Source of the DNA: Candidatus Magasanikiibacteriota bacterium
GTDB lineage: Bacteria > Patescibacteriota > Patescibacteriia > Magasanikbacterales > GWA2-37-8
Length of the DNA stretch: 64,000 nt
NCBI GenBank assembly: GCA_030650025.1
Contig: JAUSEN010000009.1
Span: 93,144-157,143, forward strand
Direction: 5' to 3'
Every line of letters starts with the position of its first letter. Position 1 is the first letter of the stretch. A program made the translations under genes and the position numbers. Under the pieces are notes generated by a model. That model was not told the origin of the DNA and searched no databases. It saw only the letters and a list, made by a program, of their open reading frames with translations. This document shows, in pieces, positions 9,744-31,479 of the stretch.

Positions 9744-9795
9744 CCATGAACCACAAAGGGTTCATGGTCCGCCTTTGGCGGAAACCTATCCGTAG

Positions 9796-11177: not shown

Positions 11178-12131
11178 TTATTTCGCAATTTTTCTCTGCC
11201 TCGTTCTGTTTTTCAGGTACCGCTCAACTGCTTCTTTCGTCGTTAGCCAATCCCTACCCTCTTTATGCGCCTCTAACTTCCCTTGCCTAGCCAGCAAGTT
11301 TAAATATTTTGCAGTAAAAGGTGCAGTTTTAGATATTTCAGTTAGTGATACAAACTTTTCCTGTTTCATAGTCGCGGGAGTCAAAGTCTTAAGATAAATA
11401 TCAAGCGAGCGCTCTATCGATTGAGCGACAAATTTAATTAGAGGCTCATATTTGCCACTATCCGCTTTATCCAAAACGTCATAATATTTCTTTCGGTCAG
11501 TTTTCATAATGACTACCAGCGGATATCCGGCCTGCATTAAAAATAAATTCATCGTTAGGCGAGCGGTTCGGCCGTTGCCGTCAAAAAATGGGTGAATGTG
11601 GACTAATTTATGGTGTAACAGGGCGGTCAATTCAATTACATTCAGCTTGTTTTTTTGTGAAGCAAGCCACGTAATTAAATCCCGCATTTTTTGTGGTACT
11701 TGTAGCGCGTCGGGTGGCGTATGTTTGGCACCGCCAATAATGACGTTGGCGTTTCGGTAGCGGCCAGCCCACTCTTTATCGGTTTCTTGTAAAATAATTT
11801 GGTGCAAATTTTTTATGAGCATTTCGGAGACAGTGTGTTTTTTGTCTTTGTCTACCAAGTCGTACAAATATTCCAGCGCGGCATGGTGGTCTTTGGCCTC
11901 CAAATGGTCTTTTAAAGGTTTGCCTTTTACCGTAATACCTTCGTTAATAACCAAAAAAGTCTCTTTTAAGGTCAAAGAGTTGCCTTCAATGGCATTTGAG
12001 TTGTAGGTCATTTCAATCTGAAATTTTTCTCGAAGTTTTTGGACAGCAGATTTTGGTAGGGGACGGAGCTTATTGAGTTTAGCCAGCTTTTCTTCCAGGC
12101 GGGTTTTTATCATTGGTGAAAGGTAGGGCAT
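11178..12131 (-). CDS. fic: Fic family protein (class II, AMPylation-type motif)
   Basis: It carries the canonical HPFFDGNGRTARL motif. The N-terminal SNAIEGN matches the intramolecular inhibitory (S/T)xxxE(G/N) motif. Confidence 0.85.
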   Translation of the reverse strand: MPYLSPMIKTRLEEKLAKLNKLRPLPKSAVQKLREKFQIEMTYNSNAIEGNSLTLKETFLVINEGITVKGKPLKDHLEAKDHHAALEYLYDLVDKDKKHTVSEMLIKNLHQIILQETDKEWAGRYRNANVIIGGAKHTPPDALQVPQKMRDLITWLASQKNKLNVIELTALLHHKLVHIHPFFDGNGRTARLTMNLFLMQAGYPLVVIMKTDRKKYYDVLDKADSGKYEPLIKFVAQSIERSLDIYLKTLTPATMKQEKFVSLTEISKTAPFTAKYLNLLARQGKLEAHKEGRDWLTTKEAVERYLKNRTRQRKIAK

Positions 12132-18920: not shown

Positions 18921-21298
18921 TGATCAATTTCTCTCAAGAACTTAACCCCGAACAACTTCGGGTCGTTACCGAGGGCGACGGCCCTTGTTTAGTTTTGGCC
19001 GGGGCCGGCTCGGGCAAAACCCGTACCATCACCTATCGCGTCGCGCATCTTCTAGAACAGGGAATAAAACCTGAAGAAATTCTCCTCGTTACCTTTACCA
19101 ACAAAGCCGCGGCCGAAATGAAACGGCGGGTAGAGCAAATTACAGCGTTGTCATCCCGAGCGGAGCCGAGGGATCCCTCCGCTCGCTCGCTACACTCGCT
19201 CGGTCGGGATGACAGTGTGGTTTTACCCTGGTCCGGCACGTTCCATTCGATCGGTTATCGGCTACTACGAATGTATGGTGGATTATTAGGTTATAAAAAT
19301 AATAATGCCCTGAACCGGAGCGGAGCGACTGGTTCGGGGTTTACGGTTTTAGACAGCGACGATTCAGAGTCGCTTATTAAACTTTGTATTAAAGACGTGA
19401 AAAGCGACGAAGCTGGGAAACGTTTTCCGTCCGCGGCGGTGGTAGCCGCGGTTATTAGTTTTAGCCGCAACGCCGAAATTTCTATTCAAGAAATTTTGGC
19501 CAAACGGTTTGAACAATGGCAAGCTTTCGAAAGTGAGATTTTAACAATTAGCAATTTATATATTGGCAAGAAAATGGCCGCGAATGCCCTGGACTTTGAC
19601 GATTTGCTCACTAAGACTCTCGCCCTTGTAAAAATGCCTCAAATCAAGCAAAAATATTCCGAGCAATTTAAGTATATTTTAGTGGACGAATACCAAGATA
19701 CTAATAGAATTCAGGCCGCGCTTATCAAAGAATTATCCGGCGTTCATAATAATGTGCTAGTGGTGGGGGACGATGCCCAGAGTATTTATAGCTTTCGCGC
19801 CGCGGATATCGAGAATATTTTAGGGTTTGAAAAAGAATACCCGGGAGCCAAAATTTTTAAACTTGAAACTAATTATCGCTCCACTAAACCAATTTTAGAC
19901 GTGGCGAATTCTGTTATCGAGAATAACGTTGACCAGTATCAGAAAAATTTACGAGTAGTCATAGACCCCCTCCTAAAAAGGAGGGGGCAGGGGGAGGTGT
20001 CGCCCTTACCAGTTCTTCAACCCGCTGTTGATTCCTCTGGCGAAGCCATGTTTATCGCCAATAAAATCGAGGATCTATTAAACAAAAAAACTGCGGCGCC
20101 CGAAATCGCGGTTTTATTCCGCGCCGCGTTTCACTCGCAGGCCTTAGAAGTTGAACTGGTGAGTAGAGGCATAGATTATGACTATCGTGGCGGCGTGCGC
20201 TTTTTTGAGCGCGCCCACGTGAAAGATATTTTGTGTTATCTCCGGATTTTTAATAATTTAGCGGACACGGCCGCGTGGCTACGCGTTCTGACGCACGAAG
20301 AAGGCATCGGCCCCGCGGCGGCGGAAAAAATTATTGAAGCGGTGCGCCCGCTGTCTGTCATCCCCGCGGAAGCGGGGATCCAAAACGTTGACACGGCAGA
20401 TTCCCGCTTACGCGGGAATGACAACGTTGATCAAGTCGAATCAATCGGCCGTTCCGTTCTCACCGGCCGCGCTCTTGGGGGTTTTGAAAATTTTTTACAA
20501 ATTTGGAATGTAATGTTGGGTTGTAGGGGCGCGGTTTCCGCGCCCCAGGGCGGGGCAACCCCGCCCCTACGCCCGCGACCAAATGAACTCGTGCTTGCGA
20601 TTTTAAAATCTCCATACCAAGAATATTTAGAATCCGAATACGTAGACAGCAAAGATCGTCAGCAAGATTTGCTCCAGCTCGCCGAGTTTGCCAAGCGCTT
20701 TGACAATTTAGAAGAATTTTTAGCTTCGGCCACGCTCCAAGAATCGTTTCGGACGATCGACACCTCCCCCAGCCCCTCCTTTGCTAAGGAGGGGGGCCGC
20801 GATTCCTCTCCCCTTAGCAAAGGGGAGGGCGACCCGCCCGAATCGCTACGCGAAGCGTTGCGGGCGGGGGGTGGGGTTTCGCATCGATCTAGAATCATTC
20901 TCTCCACCATCCACCAAGCCAAGGGCCTAGAGTGGGAGGCGGTGTTTGTGATGAATCTATCCGCCGGCGCTTTCCCCAACGACCGCGCCAGCCGCGAAGA
21001 TAAAGGGTTAGAAGAAGAGCGCCGGCTTTTTTACGTGGCAGTAACGCGCGCGAAAAAATATTTGTATTTAACCTACCCCATGGCGGGCGGCAGTTTTGGC
21101 GACTTTCTCTCTGGGCCAAGTATTTTTATTAACGAAATCAAGCCCGGCCTAGTTGAGGACCATTCGCTGTTGTTAAAAGGCTCTTCGGTTTTTAATTCTG
21201 GTGAATTAACATATGTCAGCGAAGAGGATGAGCCCTTTTCTAGTAAACCAATTAAAATTAAGCCCGGTAGTTTGCTTAGAAACATCGAAGATCTTTAA
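18920..21298 (+). CDS. uvrD: UvrD/PcrA-family ATP-dependent DNA helicase with five in-frame palindromic-element insertions
   Basis: A 792 aa ORF with Walker A AGAGSGKTRTIT, motif Ia WSGTFHSIGYRLL, motif II DEYQDTN and C-terminal VAVTRAKKYLYL. The insertion positions are listed as separate repeats. Confidence 0.9.
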   Translation: MINFSQELNPEQLRVVTEGDGPCLVLAGAGSGKTRTITYRVAHLLEQGIKPEEILLVTFTNKAAAEMKRRVEQITALSSRAEPRDPSARSLHSLGRDDSVVLPWSGTFHSIGYRLLRMYGGLLGYKNNNALNRSGATGSGFTVLDSDDSESLIKLCIKDVKSDEAGKRFPSAAVVAAVISFSRNAEISIQEILAKRFEQWQAFESEILTISNLYIGKKMAANALDFDDLLTKTLALVKMPQIKQKYSEQFKYILVDEYQDTNRIQAALIKELSGVHNNVLVVGDDAQSIYSFRAADIENILGFEKEYPGAKIFKLETNYRSTKPILDVANSVIENNVDQYQKNLRVVIDPLLKRRGQGEVSPLPVLQPAVDSSGEAMFIANKIEDLLNKKTAAPEIAVLFRAAFHSQALEVELVSRGIDYDYRGGVRFFERAHVKDILCYLRIFNNLADTAAWLRVLTHEEGIGPAAAEKIIEAVRPLSVIPAEAGIQNVDTADSRLRGNDNVDQVESIGRSVLTGRALGGFENFLQIWNVMLGCRGAVSAPQGGATPPLRPRPNELVLAILKSPYQEYLESEYVDSKDRQQDLLQLAEFAKRFDNLEEFLASATLQESFRTIDTSPSPSFAKEGGRDSSPLSKGEGDPPESLREALRAGGGVSHRSRIILSTIHQAKGLEWEAVFVMNLSAGAFPNDRASREDKGLEEERRLFYVAVTRAKKYLYLTYPMAGGSFGDFLSGPSIFINEIKPGLVEDHSLLLKGSSVFNSGELTYVSEEDEPFSSKPIKIKPGSLLRNIEDL
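19149..19214. repeat. TGTCAT...ATGACA element (66 nt) in frame within uvrD between motifs I and Ia
   Basis: tgtcatcccgagcg ... cgctcggtcgggatgaca forms terminal inverted repeats. It encodes about 22 extra residues (SSRAEPRDPSARSLHSLGRDDS) relative to UvrD homologues. Confidence 0.75.
19966..20005. repeat. mini GC-rich hairpin element (ccccctcctaaaaaggaggggg plus tail) in frame within uvrD
   Basis: It resembles the first hairpin and the 3' tail of the 115-nt tri-hairpin element. Confidence 0.6.
20356..20423. repeat. TGTCAT...ATGACA element, CCCGCG subtype (copy B3), in frame within uvrD
   Basis: tgtcatccccgcggaagcggggatc ... gattcccgcttacgcgggaatgaca has the same architecture as the intergenic copies at 6925 and 42756. 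Confidence 0.8.
20523..20570. repeat. GTAGGG...CCCTAC composite palindrome in frame within uvrD
   Basis: gtaggggcgcggtttccgcgcccc-agggcggggcaaccccgcccctac shows nested hairpins. Its ends match the intergenic palindromes at 8123 and 30770. Confidence 0.7.
20764..20882. repeat. GC-rich tri-hairpin element copy C2, in frame within uvrD
   Basis: Near-identical to the copy at 16211..16332 in tgt and in the same plus-strand orientation. It is therefore translated in the forward frame here and in the reverse-complement frame in tgt. Confidence 0.85.
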
Positions 21299-21465
21299 AT
21301 TACTTATTTTAGAAACCCTAAAATAGGCAGCACGGAAGTTAAATATATTTATAAAATTTTTTTAGTTTATATACCACCTGTATCCGGGTGGTTTTTTTGT
21401 TAACGACCCCCGCCAAAGGCGGAGTGTCAGTTAACAAACCGCCTCTAGCGGATCTCTCCACTCTC

Positions 21466-21495
21466 TTGACGTTTCTGTCTATATTATGATATTAT
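21466..21495 (+). promoter_or_regulatory. promoter TTGACG-18-TATTAT upstream of GC-rich island 1
   Basis: An AT-rich native-style promoter followed by a GC-rich leader and an SD-bearing ORF. Confidence 0.45.
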
Positions 21496-21593
21496 ACTTT
21501 GTTTTTCGTGGGGCATCTTGCCTCTCGGAAGCCCGGGCGCGACCCCGGTAAAAATCGCGTAACCGCCAACGACGTCTTTTTTCGGAGGAATTC

Positions 21594-22019
21594 ATGAGCC
21601 CCATCACCCGCACCACCCTGGTGTTCGTCATCGGGCTCCTCGCGGGCCTGCCGCTCGGCCACCTCCGCCAGGAGGTTGCGGATCTCCGCCAGGTGGCGGA
21701 GCTCGAGCGCTTCGTCGCGGCCCATCACAATTTCGTCGTGGCCCATCACAATACGGTCGACACGCTTCTCGACTCGGCCATGCACTGCACGGAGAACTTA
21801 CTCGTGCTGGGGTACTCCACGGTGCATGTCTCCGACTCCTGCCAACGAGAGATCGCCGCGCAGATCCCACGGGCAACGTGGCTGGTCAGCGCGGTGGACA
21901 GCTGCGCTTCGGAGGAGGATGGCGAGGACTCGTCCTTCGACCCGCAGGTCGTCCCGAACGACGAACTGCGCCGGAACTCCACCCGCATCATCCCCATCCC
22001 GAGCCGCTGGCCGCGCTGA
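21594..22019 (+). CDS. hypothetical membrane-anchored protein (high-GC island 1)
   Basis: A 141 aa ORF with about 68% GC, a strong SD (GGAGGAATTCATG) and an N-terminal TM helix. Confidence 0.5.
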   Translation: MSPITRTTLVFVIGLLAGLPLGHLRQEVADLRQVAELERFVAAHHNFVVAHHNTVDTLLDSAMHCTENLLVLGYSTVHVSDSCQREIAAQIPRATWLVSAVDSCASEEDGEDSSFDPQVVPNDELRRNSTRIIPIPSRWPR

Positions 22020-22032
22020 GGAGGCGCACAAG

Positions 22033-22182
22033 ATGGAACTTGTTTTCGCGCTCGTCGTGCTCTACCTGCTGGGGAGGTTCGGTGCCACGATCTTCATCGG
22101 GGGGATGAAGATCGTGTTCTACATCTTCCTCGGCCTCGTGGCCCTGACCATCCTCGGCGCCATCGCCGCCCTGCCGCGCTAG
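22033..22182 (+). CDS. small hydrophobic protein, 49 aa (high-GC island 1)
   Basis: SD GAGGAGG is 7 nt upstream of the ATG. The product has two predicted TM helices. Confidence 0.45.
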   Translation: MELVFALVVLYLLGRFGATIFIGGMKIVFYIFLGLVALTILGAIAALPR

Positions 22183-22240
22183 ACTCGGAATCTAGCGCGC
22201 AAGTCGTACGGATATGCTCTGGCGGTGTTCTCAAAAACCA

Positions 22241-22297
22241 CCCGATCATGTCCCAGTCAACGCAAGTATTTGTGTTGAGTGGGATCGGGTGGTTTTT
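22241..22297 (+). terminator. hairpin plus T-tract terminator (ccacccgatc...gatcgggtgg ttttt)
   Basis: A long inverted repeat followed by TTTTT. Confidence 0.55.
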
Positions 22298-22323
22298 AAA
22301 CCCGGTTATTTAGGAGGAGAGAA

Positions 22324-22662
22324 ATGATCCGCGCGAAGTTTTTGGTCGTAGACGACGACCCGGATAACAGGGAGGTCGTCGCCAGTGTCCTTAGGGACAA
22401 GGGCTTCGAAGTAGATGAGGCGTTGTGCGCGCAGGACGCGCTCACCCTGCTCGGGCAGGTGGAGTATGACGTCCTGATCACGGACGTCGACATGCCGGGC
22501 ATGAGCGGCCTCGAGTTGGTGCGCCTGGTGCGCGCCAAGCCGGAAAGCCCCTACGCGGTTGTGATGTCCGGCCGGGCCATGGCTCAGTTGGCCGCAGCTG
22601 CCGGAGCCGAGGAGTTCTTCGAGAAGCCGTTCGACCTCGAAGAGTTTCTCGCCGTGTTCTAA
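22324..22662 (+). CDS. stand-alone response-regulator receiver domain (CheY-like), high GC
   Basis: A 112 aa ORF with the acidic pocket VVDDD, the phospho-acceptor Asp in LITDVDMPGMSG and a conserved Lys in EKPFD. SD AGGAGGAGAGAAATG. Confidence 0.8.
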   Translation: MIRAKFLVVDDDPDNREVVASVLRDKGFEVDEALCAQDALTLLGQVEYDVLITDVDMPGMSGLELVRLVRAKPESPYAVVMSGRAMAQLAAAAGAEEFFEKPFDLEEFLAVF

Positions 22663-22832
22663 CAGCCGCGTTCAGTTAGCCTCTGCCTACACACCGCGCC
22701 ACCGTGTCCCGCCAGGCGGGATCCTTCCAAAGACGCTCCTGGCGTCAACTCCGGGCCAGGAGTTATTTCTGGAAGAATTCGCGTCGGTAGCAGGTGGCCT
22801 ACCCGGCCGACGCATTTTTCCTCTAGTCACGA

Positions 22833-22900
22833 AAACCACCCCGTCGCTATCTCAATGGCAATAAGTTATTTACTGCTAGCGAGATGGGGTGGTTTTTTGT
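22833..22900 (+). terminator. terminator hairpin aaaccaccccgtcgc...gcgagatggggtggtttttt at the end of island 1
   Basis: An imperfect long stem plus a T-tract. The GGGTGGTTTTT tail motif is shared with the hairpins at 21369 and 22241. Confidence 0.6.
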
Positions 22901-22905
22901 TTCTC

Positions 22906-22934
22906 TTGACAATTTCTCCGCTTTCTAATATAAT
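22906..22934 (+). promoter_or_regulatory. perfect consensus promoter TTGACA-17-TATAAT of the str operon
   Basis: Exact hexamers 70 nt upstream of the rpsL ATG. Confidence 0.75.
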
Positions 22935-23006
22935 CTTCGCAGAACGTGAAACAGAACCAATCTCGTGGCTGAGACAATTCGTTTCAGTTTTATTTTTTTA
23001 AAAACT

Positions 23007-23441
23007 ATGCCCACAATTAGTCAGCTTATCAAACGACCCCGCAAAGCTAAACAGCGCAAAACCAAAACTCCGGCTTTACAATTTACCATCGACAACCTCC
23101 ACCGCCGCGTTACGCCTTTTAGGAAAGGGGCGGCTTTTAAGCGTGGTGTTTGTACCAAGGTGTATACCACCACTCCCAAAAAACCAAACTCCGCGCTCCG
23201 TAAAGTGGCCAAGGTCCGCCTAAGTAACGGCACCGAAGTTATCGCCTATATTCCGGGCGAAGGCCACAACCTCCAAGAGCACTCCATTGTGCTTATTCGC
23301 GGCGGCCGGGTGAAGGATTTACCAGGGGTGCGCTACCACATTGTGCGGGGCGTTTACGACGCCCAAGGAGTCGCGAATCGTCGCCGCGGCCGTAGCCTTT
23401 ACGGCAACAAGCGCCCGAAAGAGGCGAAAGCTAAGAAATAA
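23007..23441 (+). CDS. rpsL: 30S ribosomal protein S12
   Basis: [13 protein letters not shown] is the canonical S12 start. The track ORF begins 42 nt earlier. Confidence 0.95.
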
Positions 23442-23474
23442 TGCGCCTCTTCGGCGCATCCGCCGACGAGGCGG
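23441..23474. repeat. double-hairpin repeat atgcgcctcttcggcgcatccgccgacgaggcgg (copy G1)
   Basis: The sequence is 33/34 identical to the sequence after the rpsJ stop (31281..31314). Confidence 0.8.
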
Positions 23475-23508
23475 ATTTATTCTAAGCATTTGTTTGAAAA
23501 TTTATCAT

Positions 23509-23988
23509 ATGCGTGGAAAATCTCCCAAAAAACGTGTTATCTTGCCTGATCCTAAATTTGGCAGTACAAACTTGGCCAAGTTTATTAACTATGTCATGGA
23601 ACGCGGTAAAAAAACTGTGGCCCAGTCGATTGTTTACAAAGCGCTCGATATTATTAAAATTCAAAACAAAGTCGCTGATGCGGTTAAAACTTTTGATGAA
23701 GCCCTGCGCAATGTTATGCCTCAAGTAGAAGTGCGCTCGCGGCGCGTGGGCGGCGCTAATTATCAAGTGCCTTTGCCGGTGCGCGGCGAACGCCAATTTT
23801 CGCTGGCTTCGCGCTGGATTATCGGCGCGGCGCGCGCTAAAAAAGGCCTGCCCATGCACAAAAAGCTTGCCACTGTGTTATTTGAAGCCAGCCAAAACCT
23901 CGGCGATGCCATCAAAAAACGCGACGAGGTGCACCGCATGGCCGAAGCTAACAAAGCCTTCGCGCATTTTGCCCGCTTTGCTAAGTAA
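23509..23988 (+). CDS. rpsG: 30S ribosomal protein S7
   Basis: MRGKSPKKRVILPDPKF is the canonical S7 start. Confidence 0.95.
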   Translation: MRGKSPKKRVILPDPKFGSTNLAKFINYVMERGKKTVAQSIVYKALDIIKIQNKVADAVKTFDEALRNVMPQVEVRSRRVGGANYQVPLPVRGERQFSLASRWIIGAARAKKGLPMHKKLATVLFEASQNLGDAIKKRDEVHRMAEANKAFAHFARFAK

Positions 23989-24019
23989 AACACAAAATAA
24001 ATCTGTTTAAATCTTTGTT

Positions 24020-26125
24020 ATGCCTCGAGAATATTCCCTAGAAAAAACTCGTAACATCGGCATCGCGGCGCACATTGACGCCGGCAAAACCACCACCACC
24101 GAGCGTATTTTATTTTACACCGGCAAGAAGCATAAAATCGGCGAGGTGCACGAAGGCGAAGCCACCATGGACTGGATGGAACAAGAAAAAGAACGTGGCA
24201 TCACTATAACTTCCGCCGCGACCACCTGTTTTTGGAAGGGCCACCGCATTAACATTATTGACACCCCGGGCCACGTGGATTTTACCGTGGAAGTAGAAAG
24301 ATCTCTGCGCGTCCTTGATGGTGCCGTGGCTGTATTCGATGGCTCTCAAGGCGTGGAGCCCCAAAGCGAAACTGTTTGGCACCAGGCCGACAAGTATAAT
24401 GTCCCGCGCGTTTGTTTTATTAACAAGATGGACAAGCTCGGCGCGGATTTTTTTATGTCGCTTAATTCTATTTTAGAACGCTTGTCGGTAAACGCGCGCG
24501 CGGTCCAGCTCCCGATTGGCGCGGACAGTACTTTTTCTGGTCTAGTAGATTTGATTGAGAAAAAAGCCATGAAGTTTGAGGGCGACAAGGGTCAAAATAT
24601 TATTGATATCCCGATTCCTGAAGATATGTTGGCCCAAGTTGAAGAATATCGCGCTAAGCTGGTTGAGAAAGTCTCTGAAGCTAACGACGAACTGATGGGC
24701 AAATTTTTAGAAGGCAAAGAATTAACCGTGGCCGAAATTAAAGCCGGCATCCGCCAGATGGTTATTAAAGGCGAACTCTACCCAGTCTTGTGTGGGTCAG
24801 CTCTCGGTAACATTGGCGTCCAGCCCATGCTCGATTCAGTCGTAGATTTTTTGCCCGCTCCCACCGATGTCCCCGAGCTCAAAGGCATTAACCCAGATAC
24901 GGATGAACCTGCCGTGCGCCACCCCAGTGACTCCGAACCATTTTCGGCGCTCGCTTTCAAAATCGCGACCGACCCGTTTGTGGGCAAACTTATTTTCTTC
25001 CGCGTTTACTCGGGCGTAGTTTCGGCCGGTACTTATGTTTATAACGCGAGCAATGGCAAGAAAGAACGCCTCGGACGCATTGTCCGCATGCACGCCAATA
25101 ACCGCGAAGATGTCACCGAAGTTTACGCCGGGGAGATTGCCGCCGCGATTGGCCTTAAAGAGGTAAAAACCGGGGACACTTTGTGCGACGAAAACAGCCC
25201 GATTATTCTAGAGCGTCCCACTTTTGCCGAGCCGGTTATCTCGATGGCGATTGAGCCTAAGACCAAGCAAGATCAAGAAAAAATCGGCCTGGCCATGCAA
25301 AAATTGGCCGAAGAAGACCCCACCTTCCGCGTCTCGACCGACTCCGAAACTCTGCAGACCATTATTTCGGGCATGGGGGAGTTGCATTTAGATATCATCG
25401 TGGATCGCATGAAGCGCGAATTTAAAGTAGAAGCCAATGTGGGCGCGCCGCAAGTCGCTTACAAAGAAACTATCAAGAGTAGCGCCGAAGCCGAAGGCAA
25501 GTATGTCAAACAGTCGGGCGGTAAAGGCCAGTATGGCCACTGTTGGCTACGCGTGGAACCGGCCGATATGGTTGATGAGGACGTCAAGAAAGAAGTTGCC
25601 AAAAACGGCTTCCAATTTGTGGACGAAATTAAAGGTGGTGTGATTCCGCGCGAATTTATTCCCGCTATTCAAAAAGGTGTCAAAGAAAGCGTCTCGCGCG
25701 GTATTCAAGCTGGCTACCCGGTCGTGGATGTTAAAGTCACGGTCTACGACGGTTCTTACCACGAAGTTGACTCCAGCGAAATTGCTTTCAAAATGGCCAG
25801 CTCGTTTGCGTTTCAAGATGGTTGCAAAAAAGCTAAGCCCGTAATACTCGAGCCCATCATGAAGATCGAAGTTGTCACCCCGGAAAACTTTATGGGCGAT
25901 GTGATTGGTGACTTAAATAGTAAGCGCGGCCAAATTTTAGAAATGACTGATCGCGGCCAAATGAAAGTTGTAAAAGCCATGGTGCCGCTCGCCAGCATGT
26001 TTGGCTACGTTACTTCGCTCCGTTCTATGTCCCAAGGCCGGGCCTCTTCCAGCATGGAATTCGACCACTACGCCGATGTGCCGAACAACGTGGCGCAAAC
26101 AATAATTGAAGGGAAGAAGAAATAG
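24020..26125 (+). CDS. fusA: elongation factor G
   Basis: A 701 aa ORF with [20 protein letters not shown] and NKMD motifs. Confidence 0.95.
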
Positions 26126-26391
26126 AGTTGTGGATAAGAGTTTGACAGGTAACAAATTTTGTTTTACCCTATAATTTAGGTATCAAGTCGCGTTCTGTAT
26201 TGGCATAATTTATTCTCCGCCACTAAAATAATTCTCTTTAAAAAAGAGGATTATTTTTTTATTGCGCTGGCACTGCGAAGCTTTAGCGAAGCAGTGTGTA
26301 TAGCTTTTTATACAACCTTGCTTTTTTTTTGCAACTTGATAGACTTATTTGAGAGCGGCCCAGTAAGCCGCACAATGAAAGGAGGTTGCCC

Positions 26392-26529
26392 ATGCGGACC
26401 TCACCGACCACGTCCCGCAGCACCGGCTCCCCGCCCGTCACCGCCACCACCGAGCCGAAGACCGAGAAGAAGGCCCCCCCGAAGCGCGCGACGAAGACCA
26501 CCACCGGCGGCATCACCAAGGCGAACTAG
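26392..26529 (+). CDS. small Thr/Lys/Pro-rich ORF (45 aa) with strong SD, high-GC island 2
   Basis: GAAAGGAGG lies 7 nt upstream of the ATG and terminator hairpins follow. It falls below the ORF-track cutoff. Confidence 0.35.
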   Translation: MRTSPTTSRSTGSPPVTATTEPKTEKKAPPKRATKTTTGGITKAN

Positions 26530-26555
26530 CTCCCGCACGGGAGCATCACCCCACA

Positions 26556-26582
26556 CCCCCGACCGCCCAGCGCGGTCGGGGG
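26556..26582 (+). terminator. GC hairpin cccccgaccgc-ccag-cgcggtcggggg
   Basis: An 11-bp stem. Confidence 0.5.
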
Positions 26583-26676
26583 TCGTGGCTAAAATTCAAA
26601 ACCCTCAATCTCCTGTTAGCCACAAATTCTTGCGGCCAGCAGGAGGGTTTTGAAAAGAATTCTCTATAAAAACAAT

Positions 26677-26710
26677 CCCCCGAGCATAGTCGAGGGGGGT
26701 TGTTTTTTTG
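26677..26710 (+). terminator. hairpin cccccgagcatagtcgagggggg plus TTGTTTTTTTG
   Basis: A G/C-clamped stem followed by a T-run. Confidence 0.55.
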
Positions 26711-26720
26711 TTTTAAATGC

Positions 26721-26749
26721 TTGACTGTTTAATATCTGCACGTTACGAT
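26721..26749 (+). promoter_or_regulatory. promoter TTGACT-17-TACGAT upstream of the desaturase
   Basis: Correct spacing, with SD AAGGAGAG 25 nt downstream. Confidence 0.5.
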
Positions 26750-26780
26750 TAAGATGGATAAAACAACCAAGGAGAGTGCC

Positions 26781-27659
26781 ATGCCCACGACCAACGCTGG
26801 TTCCAACCCGCCCCGCCCCGCCCGTCTGCCCCGCCAGCCCGATGAGAACCTCCGTGTCGTTGGCGCCTTGCCGTTCTTCACCATCCACCTCGCCGTTATC
26901 TTCGGCGTCTTCCTGGTGGACTTCTCGTGGAAGGCGGCGATCTTGTGCGCCGTGGCGTACTACGTGCGCATGTGGGGAATCGCCGCCGGATTCCACCGAT
27001 ATTTGGCGCACCGTAGCTTCAAAACGTCTAGAGCCTTCCAGTTCTTCTTGGCCTTGCTCGGAACCATGGCCGCGCAGCGCGGCCCGCTCTGGTGGCTTGG
27101 GAAGCACCGCGAGCATCACCGCAACACGGATACGCCGCTCGATGTGCACTCGCCTTCGGTCCAGGGGTTTTGGTGGGCGCACATGTTGTGGTTCTTGTGC
27201 GCCAAGCACGACGGTACGGCGGACAAGATCAAGGCCGAATTTCAGGCTTACCCGGAAATCGGGTGGCTCGACCGGAACTATCTCATTCCGCCGCTCGCCC
27301 TCGCCCTCGCTCTCCTCGCCGTGTGGGGCCTCCCCGGCCTCTTCTGGGGGTTCTTCGCCTCCACCGTGCTCTTGTGGCACGGAACCTTTACGGTGAACTC
27401 CGTGATGCACCTCGAGAGCGTTGGCCAGCGGCGCTACCCGACACCGGATACCAGTCGCAACGTCTGGTGGCTCTGGCTCGTCACCCTCGGCGAGAATTGG
27501 CACAACAACCACCACCACTACCAGGGTGCCGAGAGCCAGGGCTTTTTCTGGTGGGAGGTGGATCTCGCCCACTACGGCCTCAAGGTCTTGTCGTGGTTCG
27601 GCTTGGTGTGGGATATCAAGAAGCCCACGCCCGCGGCCCTCGCCCCGCCGACTGCGTAG
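26781..27659 (+). CDS. membrane acyl-CoA/acyl-lipid fatty-acid desaturase (delta-9, DesA3/stearoyl-CoA desaturase family)
   Basis: Three histidine boxes are present: HRYLAHRS, HREHHR and HNNHHHY, with TM segments between them. The region is about 66% GC. An alternative start is at 26754. Confidence 0.85.
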   Translation: MPTTNAGSNPPRPARLPRQPDENLRVVGALPFFTIHLAVIFGVFLVDFSWKAAILCAVAYYVRMWGIAAGFHRYLAHRSFKTSRAFQFFLALLGTMAAQRGPLWWLGKHREHHRNTDTPLDVHSPSVQGFWWAHMLWFLCAKHDGTADKIKAEFQAYPEIGWLDRNYLIPPLALALALLAVWGLPGLFWGFFASTVLLWHGTFTVNSVMHLESVGQRRYPTPDTSRNVWWLWLVTLGENWHNNHHHYQGAESQGFFWWEVDLAHYGLKVLSWFGLVWDIKKPTPAALAPPTA

Positions 27660-27960
27660 CGGCCACCAGCGCTAATCATTATGCCCCTACCCTTGGCTTC
27701 AGCGGGCAGGAGGCTTCACAAGGTCTCCTCGCTCGTTATAACGGAAAAAATTTTTCGCTATAACGAGGGAGATCTTGGAGAAAATAAATAAGATAAATCG
27801 CCCCGACGTTATGCCGGAGCGGTTTTGTTTTTATATCGGATTTTATATCGATATCTTGACTTTTAGCAATTTTTATGATATTATCTTTTTCAACCACGTG
27901 GCAGTTTGGCTCCGGATCTACCGGCGCTAACCCGCCCCTCAACCCTCTTGAGAGGGAAAC

Positions 27961-28158
27961 ATGACGCGTTCCGATCGCCATCGCATCGAGGAGGCCCGCA
28001 CGGGCCGCGACCAGCCGCGCGCCGCGGCCACCACCCTGGGCAGTTCGCCTGACGCCGAACCGGGCGGCTCCACACCCCGTGGCACGAAGCCCGGCTTCAA
28101 GCTCGTGAAGCGCGGCACCCGCCGCACCGACCGGCGCCCGGGGGGAGGCTGCTTCTAG
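27961..28158 (+). CDS. small basic Arg-rich ORF (65 aa), high-GC island 2
   Basis: The product MTRSDRHRIEEARTGRDQPR is preceded by the hairpin ccctcttgagaggg. Coding status is uncertain. Confidence 0.3.
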   Translation: MTRSDRHRIEEARTGRDQPRAAATTLGSSPDAEPGGSTPRGTKPGFKLVKRGTRRTDRRPGGGCF

Positions 28159-28415
28159 CGGCCACCCCTGCCGCCCCTCCGCGAAGGAACCACCGGGGCG
28201 CCCAGTCATTCGACTGGGCGCCCCAAAACTAAAAATTAATTCCCTGCTTGTCTTAATTAAGATGAGCGGGGATTTTTTATTCGGGGATTACTTAGCCTGT
28301 TATTTAGTCCTTGCGTTTTTTTATAATTTGTATTAGTATGGTTCTCATTGTCGTGCCATCTTGCCCGCACTTTCGCGGGCCGATTGGCCGATTCGCCTCT
28401 GAAAGGAGGCTTCCC

Positions 28416-28736
28416 TTGAGCAAAATCATCAGGCACACCCGCGTCAGAGGGCACGTCACCAACGGCGACGTCGCCGCGGAGCTCGACCCCGCCGCGGTCG
28501 CCCGCTCCCAGCGGGCGTTCCGGGAGGAGTGCGGCGGGCCCCGTCGCCCGCGGCTCGCCCCCTCGCCCGCGCCCCAGGCGCAGGAACCGCGGCCGTCCAC
28601 CGATGCGGCCATCGCCGAGCTCGAGCGCAAGCTGGCGGCGCGCGGGATCATCACCCCCCGCGCCACCTCCGCGCCGCAGCCGGGCACGGCTCCGGGCGAG
28701 CCCCGCCCGGCCGGTTCCACGCCCGAGGCCTTTTAG
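28416..28736 (+). CDS. hypothetical Pro/Ala-rich protein with TTG start, high-GC island 2
   Basis: GAAAGGAGG lies 7 nt upstream of the TTG, the same SD context as the ORF at 26392. Confidence 0.35.
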   Translation: MSKIIRHTRVRGHVTNGDVAAELDPAAVARSQRAFREECGGPRRPRLAPSPAPQAQEPRPSTDAAIAELERKLAARGIITPRATSAPQPGTAPGEPRPAGSTPEAF

Positions 28737-28777
28737 GCCAGAGGGCGCCCCCCAGTAGGGGGGCAAGCAACATAACG

Positions 28778-28812
28778 GGGCGGCGTCTCTCGATGCACTT
28801 GAGACGCCGCCC
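28778..28812 (+). terminator. 12-bp perfect hairpin gggcggcgtctc-N11-gagacgccgccc
   Basis: It shares the GAGACGCC core with the hairpin at 29344..29372. Confidence 0.55.
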
Positions 28813-28818
28813 TAGCTT

Positions 28819-28848
28819 CACCTCTTTAGCAGTAGAGGTTTTTTATTT
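28819..28848 (+). terminator. hairpin cctctttagcagtagagg plus TTTTTTATTTTTTT
   Basis: A classic intrinsic terminator marking the end of GC island 2. Confidence 0.65.
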
Positions 28849-28853
28849 TTTTA

Positions 28854-28881
28854 TTGACACAATTTTCTTTCTTGTTATAAT
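28854..28881 (+). promoter_or_regulatory. consensus promoter TTGACA-16-TATAAT followed by hairpin gacaggaggggaactctgtc plus T7 (leader attenuator?)
   Basis: Exact hexamers. A terminator-like hairpin (28889..28921) lies between the promoter and the ATG at 28936. Confidence 0.6.
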
Positions 28882-28935
28882 AACTAATAGACAGGAGGGG
28901 AACTCTGTCTTTTTTTATAATTTCAAACTTTGCTT

Positions 28936-29340
28936 ATGAACAATTCCCATTTACAAAAAGTTCTGCGTTTAATAAGGAAGACTCGCGACCGAGTGGTGGT
29001 TTTAGACCAAGAGAGTGATGATGTTCTCGTAATACTTCGTCTTGAAGATTACGAAGATTTAGTAGATGCTACTAAGACAGTAAGTAATACCGGCAGTAAT
29101 GCCGAGAGTAATAATAATCAAGAATCAATTTTGCCTTCTCCGGCTGACGAAGAGCAATTTACCTCGCCGCCAGGCGGGGCGCCTCTCCCTTCACAAAATA
29201 TTCACAGCTTCCCTAATGCTAAACAAAAATTAGATTTTAGCAGTGACTGGCAGGAGCAAAATGCCTCGCATTTCGAGCCTCTGGACAGCCTCCCAGAGGA
29301 CGAGGTTGAAGAAAAATTTTACCCCGAACCGGTGGAATAA
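28936..29340 (+). CDS. hypothetical protein with Phd/YefM-like N-terminal domain and acidic disordered tail
   Basis: RVVVLDQESDDVLVILRLEDYEDLVDAT resembles the YefM antitoxin fold. No toxin partner is adjacent. The track ORF starts at the TTG at 28930. Confidence 0.4.
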   Translation: MNNSHLQKVLRLIRKTRDRVVVLDQESDDVLVILRLEDYEDLVDATKTVSNTGSNAESNNNQESILPSPADEEQFTSPPGGAPLPSQNIHSFPNAKQKLDFSSDWQEQNASHFEPLDSLPEDEVEEKFYPEPVE

Positions 29341-29343
29341 TTG

Positions 29344-29372
29344 GTAGAGACGCCCCGCCGGGGCGTCTCTAC
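29344..29372 (+). terminator. 13-bp perfect hairpin gtagagacgcccc-gcc-ggggcgtctctac
   Basis: It lies immediately after the stop of the preceding ORF. Confidence 0.55.
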
Positions 29373-29407
29373 ATGGTTTGTTCAGGTTTTGTCCACACTT
29401 TGCCCTC

Positions 29408-29436
29408 TTGCCAAAATTTGGCTAACCTGTTACAAT
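29408..29436 (+). promoter_or_regulatory. promoter TTGCCA-17-TACAAT for tuf
   Basis: Good hexamers 130 nt upstream of the tuf ATG. Confidence 0.6.
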
Positions 29437-29567
29437 GGTGGCGAATTACATTTGCCTATTTGGGCTATTAATTTTTTTATCTAATTGTAGCTATTTTGCT
29501 ACGCTTGCGGCTGGACAATAAATCTGCGTGGGATCCTCCCCGCCAGTGCCGCGTAACGTTTTTACAT

Positions 29568-30758
29568 ATGGCAGAGTTTGTACGCTCCAAGCCACACGTA
29601 AACATTGGAACCATTGGCCACGTCGATCATGGCAAAACCACGACGACCGCCGCGATTTTAAAAGTATTGGCCGCCCACGGCCAAACTGCTGATGTCGCTT
29701 CAGCCGACAAGCTCGACAAGGCTCCCGAATCTAAGAGCCGCGGTATTACTATCGCCACCGCTCACGTGGAGTACGAAACCGCCAACCGCCACTACGCTCA
29801 TGTGGATTGCCCTGGCCACGCGGACTATGTTAAGAATATGATCACGGGCGCGGCCCAGATGGACGGCGCTATTTTGGTGGTCTCCGCCGCGGACGGCCCC
29901 ATGCCGCAAACTCGCGAGCACATCTTGCTCGCTCGTCAAGTCGGCGTGCCTTACATCGTGGTTTACCTCAACAAGGTAGATATGGTGAGCGATCCCGAAT
30001 TGATTGATTTAGTCGAAGCCGAAGTGCGCGACCTTTTAACCAAATATAAATTCCCGGGCGACAAAATTCCGGTTATTCGCGGTTCCTCTACCAAAGCTTT
30101 GGAAAACCCATCTGATGAAGCCGCCGCCAAGCCAATTTTGGACTTGATGGCCGCCTGCGATCAGTATATTCCCGAGCCCACTCGCGCGACCGACAAACCA
30201 TTCCTCATGCCAGTTGAAGACGTCTTCTCCATTGAAGGCCGCGGTACAGTCGTGACCGGCCGTATCGAACGCGGTATTGTAAAAATCAATGACGAAATTT
30301 CGATCGTTGGCCTGCGTGAAGAGCCCATGAAGACCGTCGTTACCGGAATCGAAATGTTTAACAAGAGCCTGAAAGAAGGCCAAGCGGGCGATAACGCCGG
30401 CATTCTGCTCCGTGGTACTAAAAAAGAAGAAGTGGAACGCGGCATGGTGCTTGCTAAACCCGGCTCCATTACTCCTCACACCGAGTACGAAGGCCAGGTT
30501 TACGTTTTGACCAAAGAAGAAGGCGGCCGCCACAAGCCTTTCTTCAAGGGTTACAAGCCCCAGTTCTATATTCGCACTACCGATGTTACTGGCGAAGTAG
30601 AGCTCCCGGCTGGCACGGAAATGGTTATGCCGGGCGACACCGTCAACATCAAAGTCAAGCTTATCACTCCGGTTGCCATGGAAGAAAAGATGAACTTTGC
30701 TATCCGTGAAGGTGGTCGCACGGTCGGCGCTGGTGTGGTAGTGAAAATTATAAAATAA
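29568..30758 (+). CDS. tuf: elongation factor Tu
   Basis: [25 protein letters not shown]. The track ORF is extended 72 nt upstream of the true ATG. Confidence 0.95.
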
Positions 30759-30769
30759 ATTATTTTTTT

Positions 30770-30797
30770 GTAGGGGGCGCATATATGCGCCCCCTAC
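30770..30797 (+). terminator. perfect palindrome gtagggggcgcatatatgcgccccctac (GTAGGG...CCCTAC family) after tuf
   Basis: A 12-bp G/C-rich stem followed by AAAATTTTG. Confidence 0.7.
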
Positions 30798-30822: not shown

Positions 30823-31281
30823 ATGAACGCCACTGCTCCAAAAACTACCGCGGTCAAACATCATGCGCCCAAGGCCAGTGCCGCTAAAGCCGCTGTTACC
30901 AAAGTAGCCGTACTCGCCAAAGGCGCCATGCCTGCCGGCAGGCAGGGACCCGCCTCGGGCGGGAAAAAAGAAGAAGCGGTGAGCCGTATTCGCTTAAAAA
31001 TTCGCGCTTACGACAGCCGCATTATCGACCAGGCCACCAAGACTATTGTTGATACCGCGAACCGCTATGAAGCCAAAGTAGTGGGCCCCGTGCCCTTGCC
31101 GACCGAAAAGACTAAATTTACTGTTAACCGCTCCAGTTTTATTGACAAAAATGCCCGCGAACAGTTTGAGATGCGCACCCACAAGCGATTAATCGATATA
31201 ATCAACGCCAATCCGCAGTGTGTGGACGCTCTTATGAGCCTGAACCTCCCGAGCGGCGTGGATGTAGAAATTAAGATGTAA
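30823..31281 (+). CDS. rpsJ: 30S ribosomal protein S10, with Ala/Lys-rich N-terminal extension or leader containing a palindromic insert
   Basis: The S10 core ([11 protein letters not shown]...) starts at the GTG at 30979. The in-frame upstream 52 codons (alternative ATG at 30928) carry the cctgccggcaggcagg palindrome. Confidence 0.85.
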
Positions 31282-31314
31282 TGCGCCTCTTCGGCGCATC
31301 CGCCGAAGAGGCGG
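31281..31314. repeat. double-hairpin repeat copy G2
   Basis: atgcgcctcttcggcgcatccgccgaagaggcgg, matching the copy at 23441. Confidence 0.8.
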
Positions 31315-31479
31315 GCTTGACAGCCAATAAAAAATAGTATAAACTGGTGCCAAGTATAAAAAATCAAAACCACTAAACGCCAAGTCAATAAGATCCGCCG
31401 ATGAGGCGGAAAACATTGCGGCGGCGGTTTAGAGGCAGGAGTAAAATAAGCTTGACAACTACCAACACAAAACCTTATC

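Follow-up and report, generated by a model that had tools for sequence, protein, structure and literature searches.

Why do fusA and tuf, the genes for EF-G and EF-Tu, stand 3442 bp apart in a bacterium from the candidate phyla radiation (CPR), and where does the GC-rich DNA between them come from? The locus in question belongs to a stretch of 64,000 nucleotides (the window) of contig JAUSEN010000009.1 from a Candidatus Magasanikiibacteriota bacterium; fusA ends here at 26125, tuf begins at 29568, and both, like all features described below unless stated otherwise, are read from the + strand. A first reading of the letters alone (the sequence-only reading) had seen in this gap an insertion of foreign DNA that splits an otherwise universally conserved gene pair and brings with it a membrane desaturase and three small open reading frames (ORFs). 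The best explanation of the locus as a whole is probably a somewhat different one: foreign units of a single ORF each, one of them an intact desaturase gene, have come to lie in a fusA-tuf gap that is variable among CPR bacteria. Read in this way, the locus exemplifies horizontal gene transfer clearly, though in a rather commonplace form.

The gap region is a mosaic. Positions 26130-28850 had been put at about 66% GC, which proved too high (measured GC 0.591), and two-state GC segmentation, from which all block edges given here are taken, divides the DNA into four sharply bounded GC-rich blocks (64-75% GC) parted by spacers of 181, 158 and 138 bp at 31-38% GC. Every block carries one ORF on the + strand followed by a perfect G/C hairpin without a U tract, while every spacer carries an AT-rich U-tract or terminator-like hairpin followed by a TTGACA/TATAAT-like site. 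The gene positions, the three small ORFs and the G/C-rich hairpin downstream of all four ORFs are as first described. Block A (26355-26589, 71% GC) holds GAAAGGAGG at 26377-26385, a 45-aa ORF at 26392-26529 and two G/C hairpins at 26529-26588 that lack a U tract. It is followed by spacer A-B (26590-26770, 38% GC) with a host-type U-tract terminator (26676-26713) and the sequence TTGACT-N17-TACGAT (26721-26749), and then by block B (26771-27735, 64% GC), in which AAGGAG (26770-26775) precedes the desaturase (26781-27659) and a G/C-rich stem. In spacer B-C (27736-27893, 31% GC), a palindromic stem resembling a terminator (27728-27771) is followed by TTGACT-N17-TATTAT, whose -10 is extended (27856-27884). 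Block C (27894-28224, 73% GC) consists of a 67-nt GC-rich leader, a 65-aa ORF at 27961-28158 and a perfect 13-bp G/C hairpin (28194-28223). In spacer C-D (28225-28362, 33% GC), a U-tract terminator of the host type occurs again (28241-28278), together with a TATAAT at ~28322-28327, and block D (28363-28812, 75% GC) closes the series with GAAAGGAGG at 28401-28409, a 106-aa ORF at 28416-28736 and G/C hairpins at 28747-28764 and 28777-28813.

A Shine-Dalgarno (SD) sequence had been noted before each of these ORFs, and this applies to three: GAAAGGAGG occurs twice and AAGGAG once, while what precedes the 65-aa ORF is just a weak GAGAGGGA. The two copies of GAAAGGAGG are the sole ones in the whole 64 kb, each lying 6 nt before an island start (26392 and 28416). 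The desaturase does appear to have its own promoter, as had been proposed, with 9 of 12 consensus positions matched at 26721-26749; the corresponding site of the 65-aa ORF at 27856-27884 matches 10 of 12. Promoter-like sites are altogether frequent between 21 and 31 kb (25, compared with 7.0 +/- 2.8 expected), although the same scan found no convincing promoter for the 45-aa ORF. We propose that four units in the gap were acquired horizontally, each made up of a donor-type SD, a high-GC3 ORF and a G/C hairpin without a U tract. The AT-rich spacers between them carry sigma-70 promoter and U-tract terminator motifs of the host type, and the units are presumably expressed. The SD of the 106-aa ORF falls inside a predicted 6-bp hairpin with a GAAA tetraloop (GCCUCU-GAAA-GGAGGC, 28395-28410), a sequestration that hints at translational control.

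The foreign character of the units shows against the background of their host. The window has a mean GC of 48.5% and a gene content typical of CPR/Patescibacteria (GatB, Tmk, DHFR, ThyA, dUTPase, L1, Fic, TrpRS, TGT and UvrD), with UvrD followed by rpsL-rpsG-fusA, tuf and the S10 operon. The best matches of EF-G, at 74-81% identity, are contigs of CPR metagenome-assembled genomes labelled Uhrbacteria, Magasanikbacteria or Patescibacteria, in agreement with the earlier placement of the host in the CPR. The source of the window is most likely a bacterium of the Uhrbacteria/Magasanikbacteria neighbourhood whose own genes are at ~48% GC and seem to make no use of SD sequences. Seven island ORFs, four in the fusA-tuf gap and three in a sister island at 21507-22813, were compared with the remainder of the window, represented by its 65 longest ORFs that do not overlap. 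G+C content at third codon positions (GC3) is 0.85-0.98 in the island ORFs versus 0.50 +/- 0.058 in the background (maximum 0.65), i.e. six to eight standard deviations above it, and high-GC3 ORFs are confined to these two places. The island ORFs are nearly devoid of A/T-ending codons, and they choose codons as a high-GC donor would, with AAG and AAA used in a ratio of 23:2 as opposed to 109:267 in native genes.

SD use separates the same two groups. When AGGAG or GGAGG was searched at -18 to -4 of any start candidate within the first 25 codons, a strong SD was found for 6/7 island ORFs (four with the full AGGAGG) and for 0/65 native ones (Fisher p = 4.5e-8). The closest relatives are SD-poor as well (0-1 per 10-23 ORFs), whereas Firmicutes loci in the same scan reached 16/23 and 21/24. 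Loss of the anti-SD has been reported in part of the Parcubacteria (PMC9297842). Native starts that lack an SD in the window include those at 23007, 23509, 24020, 29568 and 30823. Finally, the 160 related loci that were compared contain not one of the island ORFs. Composition and SD use, and likewise the desaturase tree discussed below, bear out the suggestion that the DNA is foreign.

One of the units encodes the desaturase. Its ORF ends at 27659 and could start as early as 26754 (292-301 aa), yet the ATG at 26781 (292 aa) is the most likely start because the -10 element extends as far as 26749, with AAGGAG following at 26770; an independent gene call (P0001) begins at the same position. The protein matches the Pfam family FA_desaturase (PF00487, 2.6e-17), and the three histidine boxes reported for it (FHRYLAHRS, HREHHR and HNNHHHY) are all present, as befits an intact delta-9-type membrane desaturase. 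Among solved structures it is closest to mouse and human stearoyl-CoA desaturase SCD1 (1.8e-26 and 2.1e-25), with all metal ligands aligned: HRYLAH, HREHH and HNNHH pair with HRLWSH, HRAHH and HNYHH of 4ymk in columns that are invariant among 58 homologues, and NSVMH, which brings the additional ligands of TM4, pairs with NSAAH of SCD1, its residues N206, S207 and H210 being invariant in alignment A2. Across 118 homologues, 73 of the 77 columns conserved at 95% or more are kept, and the four changes are conservative. Hydrophobic hairpins at residues 32-80 and 175-208 provide for the four transmembrane helices of a mushroom fold. An AlphaFold (AF2) model built from the 58 homologues reached a mean local confidence (pLDDT) of 91.8 and a global score (pTM) of 0.89, and a Foldseek search with it returned 4ymk, 4zyo and 6wf2 (TM 0.80-0.81, E ~1e-12). 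The GC3 of the gene is 0.86.

By these features the protein is predicted to be a stand-alone membrane enzyme of the SCD1/OLE1 type, with acyl-CoA or acyl-lipid as its putative substrate. With SCD1 (4YMK, 4ZYO, 6WF2) and the COG1398/OLE1-type acyl-CoA desaturases it has in common the HX4H, HX2HH and HX2HH boxes, the NSxxH ligands and the four transmembrane helices; unlike SCD1, to which it is 25-26% identical, it is short (292 aa), has neither a cytochrome b5 partner nor a fusion to one, and sits in a type of genome thought unable to make fatty acids. The label 'DesA3-like' used in the sequence-only reading is not supported. Mycobacterium tuberculosis DesA3 (Rv3229c) has ~427 aa and works with the adjacent NADPH oxidoreductase Rv3230c. 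By description, both proteins are membrane-bound, O2-dependent delta-9 desaturases with three histidine boxes in Pfam FA_desaturase. However, the window protein differs in length and in neighbourhood, since it is flanked by the 45-aa and 65-aa ORFs, with no oxidoreductase or other electron-donor gene adjacent to it, and it scores 64.3 bits against the cut-off of 400 for the DesA family of NCBIfam (NF049918). The enzyme would sit in the membrane as a four-helix di-iron protein, draw its electrons from a donor resembling ferredoxin or flavodoxin, and use O2 to introduce a cis double bond, probably at delta-9, into scavenged saturated acyl chains, and membrane fluidity could be tuned in this way.

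Where the desaturase came from was addressed by neighbour-joining. The closest homologue besides its own copy is P0002 (78% identical, all others at 60% or less), and the two form a pair inside a 40-member clade of ~290-aa enzymes. Four contigs sampled from this clade encode Ser/Thr kinases with TPR, cyclopropane-fatty-acid synthase (CMAS), Lipid_desat, cytochrome P460, copper ATPases and cupredoxins; the sole one with GC measured, L082, stands at 63%. Given the kinases, CMAS, P460 and cupredoxins, the clade contigs are therefore assigned to large-genome aerobes and not to the CPR, so that the tree, which had been called for as a check, nests the window protein among non-CPR homologues. The ~290-aa 'acyl-CoA desaturases' of this group (P0003-P0042, L082, L083, L164 and L165) have the same length, 55-60% identity and all conserved columns. 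They come from soil and sediment metagenomes and from Myxococcota and Acidobacteriota-type genomes, and they lie in a high-GC, large-genome context beside CMAS, Lipid_desat, kinases and cupredoxins, whereas the window gene, within a genome of 48% GC, is on its own and has an AT-rich promoter in front of it. A keyword search of the literature returned no description of a fatty-acid desaturase in the CPR, a keyword result rather than proof of absence.

The surroundings into which the units came turn out to be less conserved than had been assumed. Relatives were counted if their EF-G was at least 64% identical, and 49 CPR relatives had tuf downstream: the distance from fusA to tuf in them ranges from 89 to 8523 bp around a median of 683 bp, and it measures 1 kb or more in 16/49. 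Six further relatives have no tuf within 5.8-10 kb, and among the ten closest relatives every measurable gap is at least 1.9 kb. In non-CPR loci, by comparison, the median is 122 bp. What fills the gap varies as well and includes pilin-like proteins, a CYTH-like protein, an IS4 transposase with an ABC transporter, and hypothetical proteins, while genes for Phd/YefM-like homologues recur directly upstream of tuf (L002, L003, L007, L016-L019, L026, L029, L034 and L086). The notion of an insertion that split a universally conserved fusA-tuf pair does not survive this comparison. Wide and variable gaps together with the recurrent Phd-like gene instead lead us to conclude that the separation is ancestral in the clade and that the gap is a hotspot for cargo. 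Nor does the window have the canonical str operon with rpsL-rpsG-fusA-tuf as one unit, as terminators and a promoter for tuf lie in its 3442-bp gap. In this clade, the two genes would be separate transcription units, and the gap between them would collect accessory genes. The longest of these gaps (L086, 7105-15020; 8.5 kb) has an IS4-family DDE transposase directly after fusA and further encodes a 980-aa protein of surface type and a 327-aa protein with an ATP-binding P-loop motif, which together with the two hydrophobic proteins next to it probably makes up an ABC transporter.

Several observations weigh against a foreign origin of the units or leave it less sharply defined. The first is P0002 itself: besides a 2-aa insertion in common with the window protein (HLES/HLAS), it also has the 10-aa, AT-rich-looking N-terminal extension (MDxxxxxxxM), and it lies among genes without a Pfam match, in a neighbourhood unlike that of the window. 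The shared extension and insertion and the unannotatable neighbours mean that P0002 may be a second CPR copy, in which case the acquisition would be older than the GC3 of 0.86 suggests and the cassette may move with its promoter region; alternatively, P0002 may be a member of the donor lineage. Second, no donor was found, the nearest desaturases outside this pair being ~60% identical. The same is true of the small ORFs, which matched their own copies only in a word-indexed search of 5.8e9 clusters (for the 65-aa ORF, an exhaustive HMMER search of 1.84e9 representatives likewise returned only itself). They have no donor copy even in the assembly of the run that holds the genome, which argues against a very recent transfer from an abundant co-resident host. 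Third, the codon adaptation index (CAI), relative to the ribosomal genes, does not separate the islands (0.53-0.68) from native genes (0.64 +/- 0.06); the index does not discriminate here because the highly expressed ribosomal genes of the host also favour C-ending codons. Fourth, among the genes annotated in the window there was none for an electron-donor partner or an acyl-CoA synthetase and none related to O2. Finally, the organism is known from one sample only, and neither a mobility gene nor flanking repeats nor an att-like site were found near the islands.

Among the alternatives, the one that fares best concerns the nature of the three small blocks rather than their origin. In our reconstruction, the three units other than the desaturase would encode small proteins without known relatives (ORFans) or be passengers transferred along with it. 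It is possible, though we would not favour it, that these blocks are no protein genes at all, being instead co-transferred donor fragments (non-coding or pieces of genes) or GC-rich structured RNAs in which the ORFs are incidental; similarly, there is some chance that at least some of the three ORFs are passengers and not functional proteins. Apart from the lack of relatives described above, such a reading draws on the absence of any Pfam, NCBIfam, PHROGs or PADLOC match and on the low-complexity composition of the predicted products, which are Thr/Lys/Pro-rich (45 aa), Arg/Gly/Pro-rich (65 aa) and Pro/Ala/Arg-rich (106 aa, from a TTG start). In addition, the 45-aa ORF has a GC1 of 0.41 below its GC2 of 0.72, making its coding strand ambiguous and the antisense register more gene-like, although the + ORF fills block A exactly; the strand of the 65-aa ORF is ambiguous as well. 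A single-sequence AF2 model of the 106-aa ORF is weak (pLDDT 65, pTM 0.23) and shows three helices in an otherwise disordered chain, and RNA fold z-scores amount to -2.1, -3.9 and -5.7 for the 45-, 65- and 106-aa ORFs, respectively.

These z-scores are inflated, however, because terminator hairpins were included, and an Rfam scan of 21-30 kb gave sub-threshold noise only. Moreover, incidental ORFs would hardly account for the strong three-base periodicity in the + frames (GC3 0.98, 0.86 and 0.93 in the order of the blocks), for the fact that every + ORF begins and ends within its own GC-rich block, or for the identical GAAAGGAGG exactly 6 nt before two of the starts. The 106-aa ORF has GC1/2/3 values of 0.74/0.65/0.93, the textbook pattern of a real high-GC gene. 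It is thus codon periodicity and SD placement that make the small ORFs candidate genes.

A more ambitious interpretation of the two islands, which we regard as unlikely, is that two dedicated landing pads bracketing rpsL-rpsG-fusA repeatedly capture foreign ORFs, possibly from host or prey DNA, in the manner of a chromosomal, moron-like system for capture and expression. Each captured ORF would, on this rather doubtful account, gain a promoter and a terminator of the type used by its new host and keep the SD of its donor in a genome where translation otherwise starts without one. SD-led or high-GC3 single-ORF units do occur at the same two sites in three relatives. In L002, a 33-aa ORF with a GC3 of 0.97 lies behind its own TTGACA promoter, and L007 has an SD-led 299-aa ORF in its fusA-tuf gap. 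The closest relative, L105 (81% EF-G identity), carries two SD-led minus-strand ORFs upstream of rpsL (positions 1-900), one of which (473-823) has 70% GC and a GC3 of 0.92 compared with 0.38 for rpsL; these ORFs are unrelated to those of the window islands and have no Pfam or phage match. If the landing-pad interpretation were true, the desaturase would let a lipid-auxotrophic episymbiont remodel stolen lipids, and the ORFan proteins would act on the host.

Cargo of a mobile element that targets this site, whether from a moron-bearing prophage remnant, from an array of integron-like cassettes or from an insert borne by an insertion sequence (IS) or an integrative and conjugative element, is a still less probable source of the simpler set of foreign units that we prefer. 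Phage morons are independent promoter-ORF-terminator units of deviant composition, and the units of the gap resemble them in having their own promoter (doubtful for the 45-aa unit), a single ORF, a terminator and a deviant composition. The IS4-type DDE transposase directly after fusA in L086 and the bracketing of one operon by two hotspots also speak for such an element. Yet no integrase, transposase or phage gene lies beside either island, and there are no flanking direct or inverted repeats. A repeat search and sensitive blastn for a shared cassette-end or att-like motif found hairpins only, and since the hairpins after the ORFs have no motif in common, an integron array is a poor comparison too. 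The nearest tRNAs, at 9795 and 48164, leave the island without a tRNA integration site. PHROGs gave no match, nor did tblastn and blastn searches of phage and plasmid collections including INPHARED and PLSDB, or scans of IMG/VR for relatives of the desaturase and the 106-aa ORF and of the response regulator and the 141-aa ORF of the sister island. In contrast to morons, the units are chromosomal, among uvrD, rpsL, rpsG, fusA and tuf, in the absence of a prophage context or viral match. Judged as a genomic island, the locus combines deviant composition with a patchy distribution and a conflicting tree, and it shows no mobility gene, repeat or tRNA.

It is very improbable that the islands are native, long-resident CPR genes whose high GC and SD sequences are kept by selection, for instance for expression level or mRNA structure. 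CAI values compatible with native genes, the taste of the ribosomal genes for C-ending codons, the small high-GC3 ORFs of L002 and L105 at the same two sites and the N-terminal extension of P0002 could all be read in this sense. Against this stand hotspot ORFs that differ completely between relatives, the distance of GC3 from the background, the restriction of SD use to the island ORFs, the nesting of the desaturase in non-CPR homologues, and a response regulator in the sister island that bears no relation to the regulator of native GC which L084 has at this site.

An assembly chimera or contamination, with high-GC reads joined to a CPR contig, can be dismissed with near certainty even though there is one sample only and chimeric joins classically form at conserved genes like fusA and tuf: Logan contigs of SRR13727527 (a second assembler, probably on the same reads) tile 20848-30795 at 100% identity (L166, 20848-24180; L001, 24158-29371; L167, 29344-30795), reproduce every block boundary and break inside fusA and after the Phd-like gene instead of at the island edges, so that no assembly break falls on the junctions; the eight compositional switches within 2.5 kb come with co-oriented ORFs and correct SD, promoter and terminator spacing; and relatives from other samples show a like mosaic.

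Strain variants without the island were sought by exact look-ups of rpsL and EF-Tu, which led only to SRR13727527, a run accession for which a literature search gave no hit. A metagenome scan with the Phd-like protein gave no match, one with EF-G returned relatives of at most 81% identity, and intergenic similarity between the window and its relatives was not detected.

Horizontal transfer and genomic islands have been documented in Patescibacteria, e.g. for the acquisition of a lysophospholipase (PMC12455944), and the locus is therefore of a known type. Like those islands, it is compositionally deviant, lineage-specific accessory DNA in a streamlined genome; it differs from them as a tiny mosaic of single-ORF units adjoining str genes, with donor SDs kept in an SD-less host and no mobility genes. 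What it adds is modestly novel, namely an SCD-type desaturase in a CPR genome and SD motifs retained by imports in an SD-less host. The latter would offer, in SD plus GC3, a marker for recent imports in such lineages, and the locus could serve as a test case for whether the ribosomes of SD-less lineages still read an SD.

The desaturase has implications for lifestyle as well. CPR bacteria are regarded as incapable of fatty-acid synthesis and as living on lipids obtained from other cells. An intact, presumably expressed O2-dependent desaturase would mark the organism as one that lives with oxygen. The fermentative host of the sequence-only reading is an assumption. Scavenging and modification of lipids by CPR bacteria have been proposed (PMC7242380), a proposal that desaturation of scavenged acyl chains would fit and for which this gene would supply a concrete enzyme.

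The sister island (21507-22813) lies just upstream of the rpsL promoter and consists of three SD-led ORFs with a GC3 of 0.85-0.92. The first encodes a 141-aa ORFan with an N-terminal transmembrane helix (21594-22019), the second a hydrophobic 49-aa protein of two helices (22033-22182) and the third a single-domain response-regulator receiver (22324-22662; Pfam Response_reg, 9.6e-25). Within the 141-aa ORF, a 21-nt tandem duplication (95% identity) at 21711-21752 gives rise to the heptapeptides FVAAHHN and FVVAHHN. At the same site, L084 has a PAS histidine kinase and a receiver of native GC; that receiver was considered as an orthologue of the island regulator and rejected, the sequences being unrelated.

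The genes that flank the gap are native. On the left, fusA (24020-26125) encodes a 701-aa EF-G that is 80% identical to that of L002 and L084 and has a GC3 of 0.56; on the right, tuf (29568-30758) encodes a 396-aa EF-Tu, 86% identical to that of L002, with a GC3 of 0.59. The native right flank (28813-29567, GC3 0.39), with its Phd/YefM-like gene, promoters and terminators, begins with a U-tract terminator at 28820-28846, followed by a perfect TTGACA-N16-TATAAT promoter at 28854-28881. Between the GC-rich blocks and tuf, the Phd/YefM-like gene (28936-29340) encodes a small acidic protein of 134 aa at native GC and has its own terminator (29344-29372), after which a tuf promoter-like site follows at 29408-29436. 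Its Pfam PhdYeFM match is weak (1.4e-4, below the cut-off), and no toxin partner was seen for it. The protein is recognizable by an N-terminal KKTGDRVVVLD...YE.L and a C-terminal FY.EPVE motif, and its homologues in relatives lie at L002 4052-4456, L003 4244-4825 and L086 15024-15485, among others.

Elsewhere in the window, a minus-strand cluster for dNTP salvage and synthesis (2631-8090) comprises thymidylate kinase, DHFR, ThyA, dUTPase, a nucleotide kinase and dCMP deaminase, and a Fic/DOC protein with a helix-turn-helix tail is encoded at 11178-12131. A twin-hairpin element of ~37 nt (TAATGCGCCTCTTCGGCGCATCCGCCGAnGAGGCGG) occurs in near-identical form at 23441-23476 and 31281-31316, after the stop codons of rpsL and rpsJ, and may be a shared terminator or attenuator.

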